Virus record (IMG/VR): IMGVR_UViG_3300045988_182393
Span: 1-64,000 of that record
DNA from: a virus
Reading direction: 5' to 3' (one strand)
DNA: 64,000 nt
The notes under the pieces were generated by a model. That model was not told where the DNA came from. It was given only the letters and a program-made list of their open reading frames with translations, and searched no databases. Positions 25,655 to 38,590 of the stretch are shown one piece after another. Within the stretch, counting starts at the first letter, position 1, and every line of letters begins with the position of its first letter. Made by a program: the position numbers and the translations under genes.

Positions 25655-25700
25655 GAGCGCACGCCCCGTCTATAGCCGTAAGGCTTAGGCGGGGTTGGCA
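25655..25700 (+). ncRNA. Structured RNA module copy R1 (GTAA-tetraloop nested hairpin)
   Basis: ccccgtcta-t-agcc-GTAA-ggct-tag-gcgggg. Covaries with R2 and R3. Confidence 0.4.
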
Positions 25701-25719
25701 GAAGAAACTATCTGAACGG

Positions 25720-25920
25720 ATGGCACATCTCAGCAGCGGAGAAGTGGTTCAGCGTGACCTGTATTCCGCTTTTCTGCTTGAACATATAGATACAGAAACC
25801 CTGAAATACGATATCGAAGCTCTTAAAGCTGCTTTTCCTGCATTTTTGAAGATGCATGAAAATACAAAAAAGCGCCTGCAGGAAGCTGAAAGCTATCTTC
25901 CTGCAAGCGTTGGATTCTAA
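25720..25920 (+). CDS. small hypothetical protein
   Basis: 66-aa ORF. Confidence 0.3.
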   Translation: MAHLSSGEVVQRDLYSAFLLEHIDTETLKYDIEALKAAFPAFLKMHENTKKRLQEAESYLPASVGF

Positions 25921-25929
25921 AAATAATAG

Positions 25930-26268
25930 TTTTCCGGGGGTCTCGACACGTCCCTCGTAAGAGAGCTGCCCCGTAAGGGGTGAAACTTCACAGGAGGATG
26001 CACTCAAAAAGCTGGGAACGCAGACAAGTGTGTTGGTCAACCTGCAAAGGCTGGATACTCATGGAAAGCCACACCCGTGGCTTTTTGTGGGAAACCGCAT
26101 AACTCGCTACCTGGCATGCTGCATGGTGATGAGCCTTGCAGCTGCCGCCCAGGAATCCCACGATTTCAATCGTGGGAGGTGTCAACGTAAGGCTACAACT
26201 CACGGAGAACCCCCATCTACAGCCGTAAGGCTTAGGTGGGGAGGTTCACGGGATGAGGTAAATATCAT
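25930..26268 (+). ncRNA. Highly structured ~340-nt leader containing module copy R2 and multiple GNRA hairpins
   Basis: ctc-GTAA-gag, cccc-GTAA-gggg, gccac-accc-gtggc, cccacga-TTTCAA-tcgtggg, ccccatcta-c-agcc-GTAA-ggct-tagg-tgggg, then RBS and ATG 26269. Confidence 0.4.
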
Positions 26269-26974
26269 GGCTTCCCATACTTATCAGGACCCGATTGGGT
26301 TCTATGAATGGTTCGATGACCTTCCCTATGCTATCCAGGATAGTATTCTGAAACACCTGCCGCATATGGAAGGCGAGGAATGGCTCATTGTCATTATCCT
26401 TGCAGCTCTTCTTCTGATGATTCTGGTTTCAGCGTATCTGGGCTTTGCAAGACATAATGTCAAAAAAACGAGTGAACGACTCAACGCTTTGAAAGAGCTG
26501 AACAACACGACTGAATTCATGCCGGTCGAGGCGCAGTACCGCTACTATCTACGTTCTGATACGAAGCCGGAATACGAGGAGTTCTCGCTCCCGAAATTCT
26601 TCCGCCGCGAAGTGAGAGAAAACTTTAAGCTGTTCAACACTCTTCTTGGCAATGCTCGGGCAAACACGGTATTGTATGAAACATACGGCCGCGAAATCCA
26701 GGAACTCCCGGATTGGACAGAATCGGATGACGATTGCGGGCGGCATATCCCGTTCTTTCTCTACCACAACATCGAGAAAGAGTTGTACGATGAAACTGTC
26801 CTGGACTGCCCTGTAACGAGCCCTGAGTTTGTCTGTACGAAAAGCTATCTGCCCAAAGATGCCAAAGAGCCGATTGAGACGGAAGAGACCTATACACTGG
26901 AGGAACTGGAAGAGTACATACGCCGCTTGAAGGTTGCAGCCGAGGTTAAGAAAAGCGGCCAGAGTGCAAGCTGA
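26269..26974 (+). CDS. Membrane-anchored hypothetical protein
   Basis: Start with RBS ggatgagg. TM WLIVIILAALLLMILVSAYLGF. Confidence 0.5.
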
Positions 26975-27045
26975 AAAAAGTCAGCAGCCATAAGCAAGAG
27001 GCAGGGCCCTGTGTTTCATGGTTCCAGAACGTCTTCCCACCTTAA

Positions 27046-27072
27046 TTTTACCAGTACTTTGATATTTTGTGG
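27046..27072. repeat. Third copy of the 27-bp TTTTACCAGYASTTTGATAT..TGYGG repeat
   Basis: ttttaccagtactttgatattttgtgg. Confidence 0.5.
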
Positions 27073-27122
27073 TTATTGACAAACGGCGCAAAAGGTGCTT
27101 GAGTTAAAAGCCATTGCAAAAA

Positions 27123-35699: not shown

Positions 35700-35719
35700 G
35701 GAGAATTAGGAAAACTGAA

Positions 35720-36400
35720 ATGAAACAGAAAAAAGAGCAAAATGGGCTTATCTTCAAAAGCTATTTTCATGCACCTAACGAAGGCGAAGTGTACAAAAGT
35801 GCAATGAACAAGTTGTCAGACAAAACACTTAACAACTTTACGCCTATTTCTATGGCTACAACAGCAAAAGAAGAATTTAAAAACAAATTGGCTATTGAGG
35901 AATGGGTGAATTCGTATGTGGGGGCGGCTAAACAATTAGCACAACTAAATCAAAACAGATGTAACGGTGGCAAGACCGGGTATGCGCTTTATAAATACAA
36001 TTATACTTTGCCAACTGTGTTTCTCATAAGACACGCGGCAGAACTTGCAATAAAAGAAGCCATCGATAAAAGTGGGAAAGTGCCGAATAGCTCTACCCAC
36101 GACCTTGACAAGTTGTGGAATTCTATATCGAGTCAACTTCCTGAAAGTAAAACTCCAAACGATAGGAAAACCATACAGCAAGTGCGTACGTTTTTACAAT
36201 ATATATCCCACTTGGATAAAGATGGAACAAAAGCACGATATGCGGTTGATAAAAATGGAAATTATACGCACGCGAAATTCGAATGGGTGGATTGTATAAA
36301 ACTGTCTAATACATTAGATGCTTTTGTTACAACACTTCGTTCCATAGACTGGGAGCATGTTAAGGCTTCAAAGGAAAAAGAAGCAAAGAAAGAAGGATAA
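35720..36400 (+). CDS. hypothetical protein (low-GC)
   Basis: 226 aa, AT-rich codon usage. Sits between the methyltransferase and the Type IV restriction gene. Confidence 0.5.
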   Translation: MKQKKEQNGLIFKSYFHAPNEGEVYKSAMNKLSDKTLNNFTPISMATTAKEEFKNKLAIEEWVNSYVGAAKQLAQLNQNRCNGGKTGYALYKYNYTLPTVFLIRHAAELAIKEAIDKSGKVPNSSTHDLDKLWNSISSQLPESKTPNDRKTIQQVRTFLQYISHLDKDGTKARYAVDKNGNYTHAKFEWVDCIKLSNTLDAFVTTLRSIDWEHVKASKEKEAKKEG

Positions 36401-36403
36401 ATC

Positions 36404-37540
36404 ATGAAAATCACCGAAACTAAAATCAAGGTATCTGACCTTGTCGAGAACTACAAGGATAATGGCGATGGCGGTGTCTTTGGCTACAATGACCGTCTTA
36501 CGATTCGCCCGTCCTTCCAGCGTGAGTTTATTTACGGGGAGAAGCAGCGTGCAGCCGTCATCGATTCCGTAATGAACGGATTTCCGCTGAACGTCATGTA
36601 CTGGTCTAAGACCGGGGCTGACACATACGAGGTTCTTGATGGGCAGCAGCGTACCGTCTCTATTGCCCAGTACATCAACAAGGATTTCCCTGTCACGGTC
36701 AACGGCAATGATAAGTTCTTCCAGAACCTGACCAACGAAGAAAAGCAGGCAATTCTGGACTACGAGCTGACGGTCTATGTCTGTGAAGGCACGGAAGCCG
36801 AGAAGCTGGAATGGTTTAAGCGTATCAACATCGCTGGAGAAGTTCTGACTCCGCAAGAGCTGCTGAACGCTACCTATACAGGTCCGTGGCTGGCTGATGC
36901 AAAGAACTACTTCTCAAAGCGCAACTGTGTGGCCGCGAAGATGGCTGATGGTTACTTGAAAGGGAACCCTATTCGGCAGGAACTGCTGGAAAAGGCTCTG
37001 ACTTGGATTGCGGACCGGGATGGTCTGGAATCCGGGCAGATGTACATGGCTATCCACCAGCATGACGAGGATGCCAATGACCTCTGGCTTTACTTCCAGT
37101 CAGTTATCAACTGGGCAAAAATGCTGTTCCCGACTAAGCGGAAGGGGATTACTGATGCACAGGCGTGGGGACTGCTCTACAACAAGTACCATGCCATGCA
37201 GTACAACAGCAACGCTCTGGAAGCAGACATCAAGCAGCTCGTGATGGACGATGATGTGACGAAAAAGGCAGGCATCGTTCCGTACATCCTGTCTGACCGT
37301 ACATGGCGTGACGAGAAGCACCTGTCTCTGCGTGCGTTTACTGAATCCCAGAAACTCCGTGCCTACGAGCGGCAGGGTCACAAATGTCCCTTGTGCGTTG
37401 CAAATGGCATCAACACCGAGTATGCCTTTGAGGATATGGAAGGTGACCACATCATTCCTTGGAGCAAGGGCGGGCATACTACGGATGACAACCTGCAGAT
37501 GTTGTGCAAGAAGTGCAATGCGGCGAAGTCGGATATGTAA
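36404..37540 (+). CDS. GmrSD-like Type IV restriction enzyme (N-terminal DUF262/ParB-like + C-terminal HNH)
   Basis: VLDGQQRTVSI (DGQQR). C-terminus CPLC...GDHIIPWSKGGHTTDDNLQMLCKKCNAAK (HNH). Confidence 0.8.
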   Translation: MKITETKIKVSDLVENYKDNGDGGVFGYNDRLTIRPSFQREFIYGEKQRAAVIDSVMNGFPLNVMYWSKTGADTYEVLDGQQRTVSIAQYINKDFPVTVNGNDKFFQNLTNEEKQAILDYELTVYVCEGTEAEKLEWFKRINIAGEVLTPQELLNATYTGPWLADAKNYFSKRNCVAAKMADGYLKGNPIRQELLEKALTWIADRDGLESGQMYMAIHQHDEDANDLWLYFQSVINWAKMLFPTKRKGITDAQAWGLLYNKYHAMQYNSNALEADIKQLVMDDDVTKKAGIVPYILSDRTWRDEKHLSLRAFTESQKLRAYERQGHKCPLCVANGINTEYAFEDMEGDHIIPWSKGGHTTDDNLQMLCKKCNAAKSDM

Positions 37541-37626
37541 TGGTGGGAGCATATCATGAAAAAATATCGCTCTTTCATGTTCGGTATGTTCACCGGCACA
37601 GATGGGAATACAAATGTCGTATTTTT

Positions 37627-38031
37627 TCAAAAATCCAATTTATAATCCCCTGTAAGAATCCCATCAACCTCCATTGTTGCGTTCGGGTCTGCTCGAAACC
37701 CAGCTTTATGACAAAAGACTTCCATTTCACGAGTTAGTACAGATTGCATAACGATACGATGCACACCATAGTCTTCGCAAATTTCTTTCAACGCATCGAG
37801 CAACAGAGACATTGTACCATGACGCTTTATAGAAAACCTAACACGTGAAATAACCAAAGCAAAATTACAAAGAAATGAAACCCTAAGTTCATTTTCACCG
37901 TCATCAGAAGTAATCCAGACTGTGCGCATACTATTAGATACGTTGCAAATACAACCTTGCTTATCCTCGATGATATTCACAAGCCGTTGCGTTTGTTCCT
38001 TCGTAAGCTCAAGCATACCGGGCAATGCCAT
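37627..38031 (-). CDS. Possible GNAT-family acetyltransferase (small, low-GC)
   Basis: HRIVMQSVLTREMEVFCHKAGF resembles the GNAT C-terminal motif. Weak call. Confidence 0.35.
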   Translation of the reverse strand: MALPGMLELTKEQTQRLVNIIEDKQGCICNVSNSMRTVWITSDDGENELRVSFLCNFALVISRVRFSIKRHGTMSLLLDALKEICEDYGVHRIVMQSVLTREMEVFCHKAGFRADPNATMEVDGILTGDYKLDF

Positions 38032-38099
38032 AAAGATTCCTCCGACAGTTATGTAGTATCATTTCATACATATATTATACATGTATTCTATACCGTTGG

Positions 38100-38590
38100 C
38101 CAAGCTGCTAGGTCGTTATTTTACAAAAAAATTCAAAAACAGGAGCCGTTCATACCACAGGAAAGCCTGCGGGTTTTCTAGCTCCCAATTATAACATTGG
38201 TGCCCGGTATTTCATCCGCGAGGTAACAAAACCCATGTCAAAGAAGGCATGGTCTCAGTGTAAGGCTAAAGTTCCTGACATTGGGCGTAGAACCCAATGC
38301 ACATTGTACTCCCTTAAACAGTTGCATTCACTGTTGAGCCCCCCCGTGGCGACTCAACAGCCCGGGCCCATCTGTTGGGATTACACTGTGTTGCGAGAAC
38401 TTTGCGGGAGACTAACCCCTATGTGGCGACCAATGCCGTCAGGCATTGTTAGCTAAGTTCGGGTCGTATCTCTACCTTCGGGTTACGCAGAGACTTACCG
38501 TGGGGTTACAACCCACGGAGAAGCCCCAACTATAGCCGAAAGGTTTAGGTGGGGAGGTCCACGATGAAGCATACAAAATTAGCGAGGTAG
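38100..38590 (+). ncRNA. Structured non-coding leader containing module copy R3
   Basis: ctgttgag...ctcaacag hairpin, ccgtggg-gttacaa-cccacgg, ccccaacta-t-agcc-GAAA-ggtt-tagg-tgggg, then RBS and ATG 38597. Confidence 0.35.

Follow-up and report, generated by a model that had tools for sequence, protein, structure and literature searches.

The closest described relatives of the elements reported here belong to the IS200/IS605 family of insertion sequences, for which the binding and cleavage of the ends by the transposase TnpA, the excision of a circle and the use of a guide by TnpB are documented in IS608 and ISDra2 (PMC3201880, PMC5934647, PMC8612924). The left end of IS608 shows a 19-nt spacing to its hairpin (PMC3201880), and its right end works with the guide GAAT (GR) and the cleavage sequence TCAA (CR) (PMC5934647). 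In ISDra2, TTGAT is the target as well as the transposon-associated motif (TAM), and both the tnpB 3' end and the right end give rise to the reRNA (right-end RNA) (PMC8612924). Moreover, ISC elements, which encode IscB, and the TnpB-only IS605B elements have common termini (Kapitonov, Makarova, Koonin 2016; PMC4810608). Here, we analyzed a 64,000-nt stretch of viral DNA (positions 1 to 64,000 of the IMG/VR record IMGVR_UViG_3300045988_182393, in the following called the window), in which a 31-nt hairpin is found three times (R1, R2 and R3). A previous reading of the letters alone, in the following the sequence-only reading, had proposed that these copies are a functional RNA module embedded in long, hairpin-rich leaders. 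Based on our analysis, the module is identified, with a probability of roughly 93%, as the subterminal imperfect-palindrome hairpin of an IS200/IS605-family insertion sequence (“family A”), and one of its copies in the window encloses a relic of a second, IS608-like lineage (“family B”).

A search of the window with the pattern CCCCRWCTAYAGCCGNRAGGYTTAGGYGGGG returned the three copies, all of them 31 nt long and on the + strand, where none would be expected by chance; the repetition and the structure reported earlier were thus reproduced. Each copy consists of an outer stem of 9 bp, a bulge of one base, an inner stem of 4 bp and a loop of 4 nt. Calculated as single-stranded DNA, the + strand of R1, R2 and R3 folds with −11.0, −9.6 and −6.7 kcal/mol (z = −4.3, −4.4 and −3.0), whereas the complementary strand is weaker in all three cases (−8.8, −7.8 and −4.0 kcal/mol), because T.G and G.T wobbles turn into A.C mismatches on that strand. 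The outer stem contains G5-C27 in R1 versus A5-T27 in R2 and R3, and the 3' arm of the inner stem reads GGCT in R1 and R2 versus GGTT in R3.

Scanning IMG/VR for the 31-nt motif resulted in at least 116 loci (given below as L numbers; counts of related loci are drawn from the matches listed). Covariation was assessed on 25 distinct variants among these listed matches, with 500 shuffles as control: 97% of the cells were paired, 4 pairs were altered on both sides, and the score was matched by 0/500 shuffles, confirming that the compensatory substitutions are genuine. Across related loci, the inner stem occurs as AGCC/GGCT, AGCT/AGCT or AACCGG/CCGGTT. The loop, which had been described as a kept GNRA tetraloop, is variable, since TTAA, TCAA, GTTG and CGAA were found in addition to GTAA, GAAA and GCAA. 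In family A, TTAGC follows the left-end hairpins, which belong to the CCCCG...CGGGG type, and right-end hairpins are of the CCCCA...TGGGG type. The “compensatory change” between R1 and R2 corresponds exactly to the difference between left-end and right-end hairpins, and we assign R1 as a left end and R2 and R3 as right ends.

The boundaries of the R1..R2 element could be determined from alleles lacking it. Four IMG/VR contigs (L190-L193) contain the empty site ...TCTATTGAT|GGGATGAGG..., and the empty-site string predicted under a one-element model, ...TCTATTGAT|GGGATGAGGTAAATATCATGG..., is likewise present in all four. Their flanks agree with the window at 80/80 positions on the left (with one mismatch in L192 alone) and at 79-80/80 positions on the right. 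Because this empty site is exact in four contigs, positions 25645-26249 represent a precise insertion 3' of TTGAT without target duplication; when the filled (25644|25645 ... 26249|26250) and the empty site are compared, TTGAT is present once and nothing is duplicated. The right boundary is also the point where similarity between loci halts (end of AGGTTCAC, 26249) and variable flanks begin, in agreement with the empty site. In L072, the same site is occupied by a 58-nt form with a single hairpin, which connects the sequence left of R1 with that right of R2. A further element, found in L050, encodes a third TnpB subfamily, has hairpins of the family A type and is inserted 4 nt upstream of the insertion point in the window, 3' of CTAT. 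As the L050 element also inserted near 25644, this intergenic junction is therefore a recurrent target. The L050 element (about 60 nt before to 790 nt after the hairpin) encodes a more canonical TnpB, has a much longer inner stem at its right end and terminates in TAATTCAC.

A full family A copy was found on the minus strand of L020. It starts with TTGAT | GACAAATGAAGAGCGCACA (19 nt) | hairpin CCCCGTCTATAGCTTTAAAGCTTAGGCGGGG, followed by a 134-aa tnpA on the opposite strand, a 524-aa tnpB-like gene and a second hairpin with AGGTTCAC. The encoded TnpA was assigned to Pfam Y1_Tnp (1.5e-37) and to NCBIfam transpos_IS200 (129 bits; cutoff 55). Hairpins on the same strand at both ends, without terminal inverted repeats, are shared by L020, L007, L074, L122 and the R1+R2 element of the window. 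The left linker comprises 19 nt (or 17 nt) and the right linker 8 nt; the linker is kept in every left-end context, and TTGAT or TTGAC lies ahead of the left end in at least 7 independent contexts. TTGAT is accompanied by the target variants TTGAC and TTCAT, and CTAT also occurs; this variation goes along with changed bases 5' of the hairpin. Tentatively, the bases −5 to −2 from the hairpin foot (GCAC, GGAC, GAGT) may pair at their first two positions with TGAT, TCAT and CTAT. Copies containing only tnpB, a copy with an internal deletion (L014) and 5'-truncated copies all terminate at AGGTYCAC, beyond which the flanks are unrelated. Overall, left and right flanks sort into a few classes each, which recombine among loci.

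The central part of the R1..R2 element shows 80-99.8% identity across the full 486 nt to more than 25 loci, each of which ends with AGGTGTCAA and continues into unrelated flanks. With the second hairpin, CCCACGATTTCAATCGTGGG, as the pattern, we obtained 72 loci, in which conservation again stops at AGGTGTCAA, and the flanks become dissimilar immediately behind TCAA. Upstream of the homologous region, these loci encode a 578-aa TnpB-like protein, preceded by a 133-aa TnpA. In the full family B copies L122 and L162, tnpA (129 bits, NCBIfam, against the cutoff of 55) and the 578-aa tnpB follow each other on the same strand, and the TnpA proteins of L020, L122 and L162 are all 133-134 aa long. The left end in L122 reads TTAC | 19 nt ending AAAG | hairpin | ATGAAAGGCCG, and TTAC was detected ahead of family B left ends in at least 6 contexts, with unrelated right flanks.

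In the window, the last 73 tnpB codons of family B are located at 25699-25917 with the stop codon at 25918-25920, and the predicted “66-aa ORF” (open reading frame; 25720-25920) lies inside this stretch. A tblastn search with the 578-aa protein aligned residues 506-578 to the window with 72.6% identity (E 5e-30). The ~265 nt between the tnpB stop and the right end have a conserved fold with compensatory changes in 9/69 predicted pairs, including the ctc-GTAA-gag and cccc-GTAA-gggg stems that had been pointed out before and are indeed located at about 25953-25980. The cccacgaTTTCAAtcgtggg hairpin reported for the R2 leader is present at 26157-26176; its reverse complement was also recovered at the start of the window, at 14-33 instead of the 12-33 given earlier. 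Here, a family B left end (1-55) runs off the window start, directly upstream of an ImpB-family gene (257-1525); its layout agrees with that of the left end in L122. We conclude that 25700-26185 is identifiable as a region holding a relic of a guide-RNA (omega-RNA) scaffold.

The region around R3 contains a separate, 5'-truncated family A relic (Table 1). By blastn, it is 97% identical to the full-length copies in L074 and L101, 96% to L020 and ~82% to L067, L034, L014, L007 and L051. The “73-aa ORF” at 38235-38456 corresponds to the C-terminus of the 524-aa TnpB (stop 38454-38456), residues 411-524 of which match the window with 79% identity (tblastn, E 4e-54). When the 97% and 82% subgroups of family A are compared, conservation is higher in the final ~175 nt than in the coding sequence upstream, and these ~175 nt have a common fold with 3 compensatory pairs. 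In both families, the conserved fold extends up to the element boundary, behind which the flanks vary. The ccgtggg-gttacaa-cccacgg hairpin of this leader was confirmed at 38499-38519. It belongs to a direct repeat (D11), in which 26186-26250 and 38499-38563 are 85% identical. Together with its flanks, the R3 relic is 98-99% conserved in 4 related contigs.

The rest of the R3 “leader”, 38032-38189, is the upstream region of a minus-strand gene (37627-38031) and shows ~79% identity with other loci. Within and slightly beyond it, we observed a 139-nt block (38057-38195) with ~79% identity to L010, L100, L127, L150 and L186 and 73% to L124, which ends with CAATTATAAC and has variable flanks. Read on the minus strand, this block lies upstream of the gene 37627-38031, which has a weak GNAT match, and comprises a TATAAT box, a T-run and the hairpin GGAGC...GCTCC between them; it may represent a leader or attenuator of that gene.

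Table 1. Transposon-derived features in the window (64,000 nt)
Feature	Positions	Strand	Sequence features and basis
TTGAT target pentanucleotide	25640-25644	+	includes the TGA stop of ORF 24756-25643; outside the element, retained on the left
Composite family A element with family B relic (605 nt)	25645-26249	+	empty-site alleles
Family A left-end linker (19 nt)	25645-25663	+	GAACTATGAAGAGCGCACG; between cleavage/target site and hairpin foot
R1, left-end hairpin	25664-25694	+	CCCCG...CGGGG type; followed by TTGGC (25695-25699), matching TTAGC of full copies
Family B IS608-like 3' relic (486 nt)	25700-26185	+	homology to >25 loci, tblastn, fold
Family B right end	26153-26185	+	guide GAAT (26153-26156), hairpin CCCACGATTTCAATCGTGGG (26157-26176), AGGTG + TCAA (26177-26185)
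Last 25 nt of family A omega-RNA region	26186-26210	+	degenerate ccgtggg-gttacaa-cccacgg stem; direct repeat
R2, right-end hairpin	26211-26241	+	CCCCA...TGGGG type; motif and fold
Family A right-end linker and cleavage tetranucleotide	26242-26249	+	AGGTTCAC; element end = C26249
Family A 3' relic, 5'-truncated	38190-38562	+	~90 C-terminal tnpB codons, omega-RNA region, right end; blastn, tblastn
R3, right-end hairpin	38524-38554	+	followed by AGGTCCAC (38555-38562), where similarity to other copies ends
Family B left end	1-55	-	TTAC (reverse complement of 52-55) | CAAACGAAGGCCGGGAAAG | hairpin | ATGAAAGGCCGC; identical to L120 and L158 over all 55 nt (100%)

Taken together, R1..R2 is best described as one family A shell without tnpB around the 3' 486 nt of family B. 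Family A homology restarts at 26186, exactly where family B ends, and beside R3, the family B target TTAC stands in front of the homologous point. In the simplest history, a family B element would have entered a family A element, and a deletion would then have removed the interval from R1+TTGGC to the last 486 nt. The copies in the window are regarded as non-autonomous relics, because neither tnpA nor iscB nor an intact tnpB was found in its 64 kb.

This arrangement also accounts for the appearance of the leaders. Both had been described as non-coding, but the C-terminal parts of two tnpB genes lie within them, and the “structured leaders” are recognisable as relics of the TnpB guide-RNA scaffold (omega-RNA or reRNA). 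They look like covarying, hairpin-rich RNA because the 3' relics keep the guide-RNA region, which ends in the hairpin before the next gene. The proposal of a functional structured RNA is therefore sustained as far as the conserved fold in both leaders is concerned, but not for the repeated module, which we identify as a transposon end acting at the DNA level, as it is also present at the left end, outside any guide RNA. Overall, the sequence-only reading is partly supported: its structural observations hold, whereas the module is part of a mobile repeat of the kind exemplified by a miniature inverted-repeat transposable element (MITE), an outcome that this reading had itself named as speaking against its proposal.

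By analogy with known members of the family, a Y1 (HUH) TnpA would bind the hairpins on the single-stranded top strand and would cut at a fixed distance from them, at sites recognised by pairing with four bases 5' of the hairpin foot. A single-stranded circle would be excised and pasted on the 3' side of a defined target of 4-5 nt, which would not be duplicated. The TnpB RNA would begin in the 3' end of tnpB, cross the right end and run on into the flank, with ~16 nt of flank serving as guide and the transposon target as TAM. These steps are adopted from the literature, and the present analysis addresses architecture, boundaries, the empty site, the target, associated genes, covariation and strand asymmetry; what is known of the family leads us to expect binding by TnpA, transposition as a single strand and a guide function of the RNA. 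The strand-specific “peel and paste” mode would be in keeping with the better fold of the + strand and with the precise insertion.

Comparing the two lineages to the described systems, family B agrees with IS608 in each of the following: TTAC as target and left cleavage site 19 nt from the hairpin foot, AAAG as left guide, GAAT as right guide, TCAA as right cleavage sequence a few nt 3' of the hairpin, and tnpA followed by tnpB on the same strand. However, the hairpin sequence and the proteins differ from IS608, and the 578-aa TnpB matches TnpB models only remotely. In addition, TCAA is placed 10 nt from the foot in the IS608 paper, whereas the distance from foot to cleavage point is 9 nt in family B, and the copy in the window is a 486-nt 3' relic. 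Family A shares with ISDra2 the insertion at TTGAT and a guide-RNA region that starts at the 3' end of tnpB, crosses the right end and reaches the flank. In contrast to ISDra2, tnpA and tnpB are arranged divergently in L020, the TnpB-like proteins of the related loci (443-524 aa) do not reach the family cutoff, the hairpin has an unrelated sequence, and the target variants TTGAC, TTCAT and CTAT occur.

A likeness to ISC and IS605B elements is seen in related loci, where a unit of ~1.85 kb encodes IscB (guided_IscB 269 bits, cutoff 175; Pfam RRXRR 6.7e-45) and has the same hairpin type at both ends, with iscB oriented opposite to tnpB relative to the hairpins. Its right end consists of a hairpin with the AACCGG/CCGGTT inner stem and TTGTTGAC, with iscB on the opposite strand. 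Unlike these loci, the window has no such unit. We also considered separate IscB insertions into family A solo hairpins, but this was rejected, as the right end of the IscB unit carries a hairpin of its own and the unit hence is one element. IscB units of ~1.85 kb with the target TTCAT are full in L019, L057, L044, L078, L091 and L052, and the deletion forms in L046, L047, L048, L062 and L089 keep both ends. In reverse complement, this target reads ATGAA, and it falls on the start codon in six different genes next to the units.

Finally, the 605-nt shell, the deletion copies (L014, L046-L048, L062, L089) and protein-free solo hairpins of ~58 nt, all of which keep the end hairpins, are reminiscent of palindrome-associated transposable elements (PATEs), repetitive extragenic palindromes (REPs) and MITEs. 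The solos differ from these elements in that one hairpin is joined to a left-end and a right-end linker; furthermore, REP_Tyr_transpos remained below its cutoff and no REP-associated tyrosine transposase (RAYT) was seen. Solos of ~57-60 nt were observed for family A in at least 56 loci (among the matches listed, in one context) and in L072, and for family B in L137, L141/L152/L157/L160/L184, the L023 type and L169. The family A solo hairpin is the commonest variant among the matches listed and is a chimera of a left-end 5' arm (G5) and a right-end 3' arm (T27), as predicted for a deletion between two direct hairpins.

Several results weigh against the assignment to IS200/IS605 or against parts of it. 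The TnpB-like proteins of family A (67.5 bits, 1.3e-18) and family B (69.5 bits, E about 1e-18 to 1e-19) both remain below the guided_TnpB cutoff of 100 bits, and the Pfam match of TnpB-like proteins to Cas12f1-like_TNB (1.7e-4) is also under its cutoff, marking them as divergent. Their genes lie in the expected place and orientation. Concerning the omega-RNAs, Rfam at gathering score returned nothing for the window and 5 full-length loci except tRNAs (L019), and even at E values up to 10 there was no credible match in either leader. HEARO is the Rfam family for the IscB guide RNA; as Rfam gave no match, there is no HEARO-type hit. The first empty-site pattern, designed for the L007-type insertion, found no match, and the pairing code between guide and target of family A is readable tentatively at most. 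Nevertheless, apart from the TnpB assignment with its scores under the cutoff, every defining feature that can be tested in sequence was found, and we therefore consider the elements as members of the IS200/IS605 family rather than as merely resembling it.

Among the alternatives, exaptation is the least improbable, and it is compatible with a transposon origin. Under this explanation, the solos would be mobile or selected REP-like elements, for instance hairpins that stabilise or punctuate polycistronic mRNA, or the relics would be omega-RNA modules without tnpB that are loaded in trans by a distant TnpB of the replicon. The omega-RNA region is whole in both relics, which have lost the 5' parts of tnpB, solos occur in both families, and the R3 relic is strongly conserved in related contigs. 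However, the relics are no more conserved than their flanks, the window encodes no tnpB or iscB gene, the family A omega region beside R2 is reduced to 25 nt, and the solos are explained simply by deletion between a left end and a right end. We regard both versions jointly as improbable. If true, trans-loaded relics would cut empty-site alleles such as those of L190-L193 in co-resident relatives.

Considerably less probable is the interpretation favoured before, in which the hairpin is a cis-regulatory or processing RNA (riboswitch-like element, antitermination or RNase site, mRNA stabiliser or part of an ornate phage RNA) for the genes starting at 26267 and 38597. The position next to start codons was correctly recognised, with the correction that the codon after R2 spans 26267-26269: R2 and R3 lie 17-42 nt upstream, and the 3' arm reaches GGAGG. 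Moreover, both leaders fold better than shuffles (z = −5.3 and −3.4), and the structure is specific to the + strand. On the other hand, the genes downstream are unrelated between loci, and the same 235-aa gene is found without any hairpin in 4 relatives, where R1..R2 is absent to the base from otherwise identical sequence. The module is located at both ends of elements combining a Y1 transposase with TnpB or IscB, hence also at left ends upstream of tnpA or tnpB, and it moves with these elements into unrelated flanks. The loop is variable, as described above, and the failure to recognise a known riboswitch or ribozyme by eye is matched by Rfam, which contains none for the window or the two leaders.

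Practically negligible is a site for integron-like or other site-specific recombination (attC-like) marking cassette boundaries: the bulged base and the single-hairpin junction in L072, which looks like the result of losing a cassette between direct repeats, would fit, but neither an integrase nor an R-box (GTTRRRY) consensus was found, a fully empty site without hairpin is not predicted by attC x attC recombination, and the ends are asymmetric (19-nt and 8-nt linkers) with a Y1 transposase as the linked enzyme. Further candidates were rejected, namely an Frpo-like single-strand promoter in the leading region of a conjugative element (the stem lacks promoter hexamers, and the data are accounted for by the transposon architecture), domain 5 of a group II intron (unsuitable length and sequence), an intrinsic terminator (no T-run) and coding through the hairpin (frames differ among contexts).

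With respect to its setting, the window represents a long same-strand array of defence- and anti-defence-like genes, comprising ImpB, Eco57I-like and EcoRI-like methylases, ResIII helicases, GmrSD-HNH, HEPN, NADAR, DUF4238 and other families. Pfam and NCBIfam assigned no family to the flanking ORFs (295 aa, 66 aa, 235 aa and 129 aa), and a tRNA/tmRNA scan of the window found none. A megablast search with 25000-39500 against annotated plasmids and phages revealed no close relative, and the scan of species-representative genomes gave 2 hits, an uncultured Lachnospiraceae metagenome-assembled genome (MAG) and a Clostridiales MAG, the latter with 93% identity to window positions 20810-22902. Based on these two MAGs, the host assignment is coarse. 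On the related contig L019, six tRNA genes form an array (513-1113), which is consistent with a phage-like host replicon.

Apart from the transposon relics, the window contains several other repeats. A promoter-like repeat, TTGC-N7-GTGCGAAYNNNRKAYAAT, occurs in 14 copies (0.08 expected), all on the + strand and each just upstream of a gene or operon (2565, 15321, 15488, 17375, 20305, 22892, 24103, 27849, 34120, 41440, 44797, 47027, 55062 and 59105); its conserved spacer GTGCGAA suggests a dedicated regulator or sigma factor for the gene array. At 35091-35585, a region that covers part of the EcoRI-like methylase gene (34199-35515) and continues past its end, a (GACA)n run (35224-35282) is placed between three diverged copies of a 77-nt segment (35091, 35319 and 35509). 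The arrangement resembles a tract prone to frameshifts, by which the methylase might exchange its C-terminus (phase variation). A tandem 222-nt duplication (43437-43880, 75% identity) lies inside a DUF4379 treble-clef zinc-finger gene (43186-44511), and a 109-nt direct repeat (90% identity) is found 31 kb apart at 19443-19551 and 50683-50791. In two paralogous lipoprotein genes that lie side by side, the ribosome-binding sites and the signal peptides (MKKVVSLALS...C) are almost identical (9579-9669/10818-10908 and 9873-10009/11031-11167).

The element class, IS200/IS605 mobile DNA carrying TnpB and IscB, is already understood, and hairpins of the same type at the ends of units with reversed iscB have already been described for ISC and IS605B (PMC4810608). 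Considering that there is no annotated relative, no Rfam model and only two hits in representative genomes, the two lineages appear to be uncatalogued. The outcome is therefore a correct annotation, in which a candidate new structured RNA is replaced by two uncatalogued IS200/IS605 lineages, one using TTGAT and one the IS608 code, both common in extrachromosomal elements of human-gut Clostridiales/Lachnospiraceae. For large, divergent TnpB-like nucleases (443-578 aa) and for IscB nucleases, which might be of interest as candidate editors, the ends and targets are thereby defined exactly, as are the guide-RNA regions. Furthermore, the empty, full-shell and solo forms at a single site, together with a different element 4 nt upstream, constitute a natural series, which shows the decay of such elements into REP- or MITE-like hairpins within tightly packed operons.

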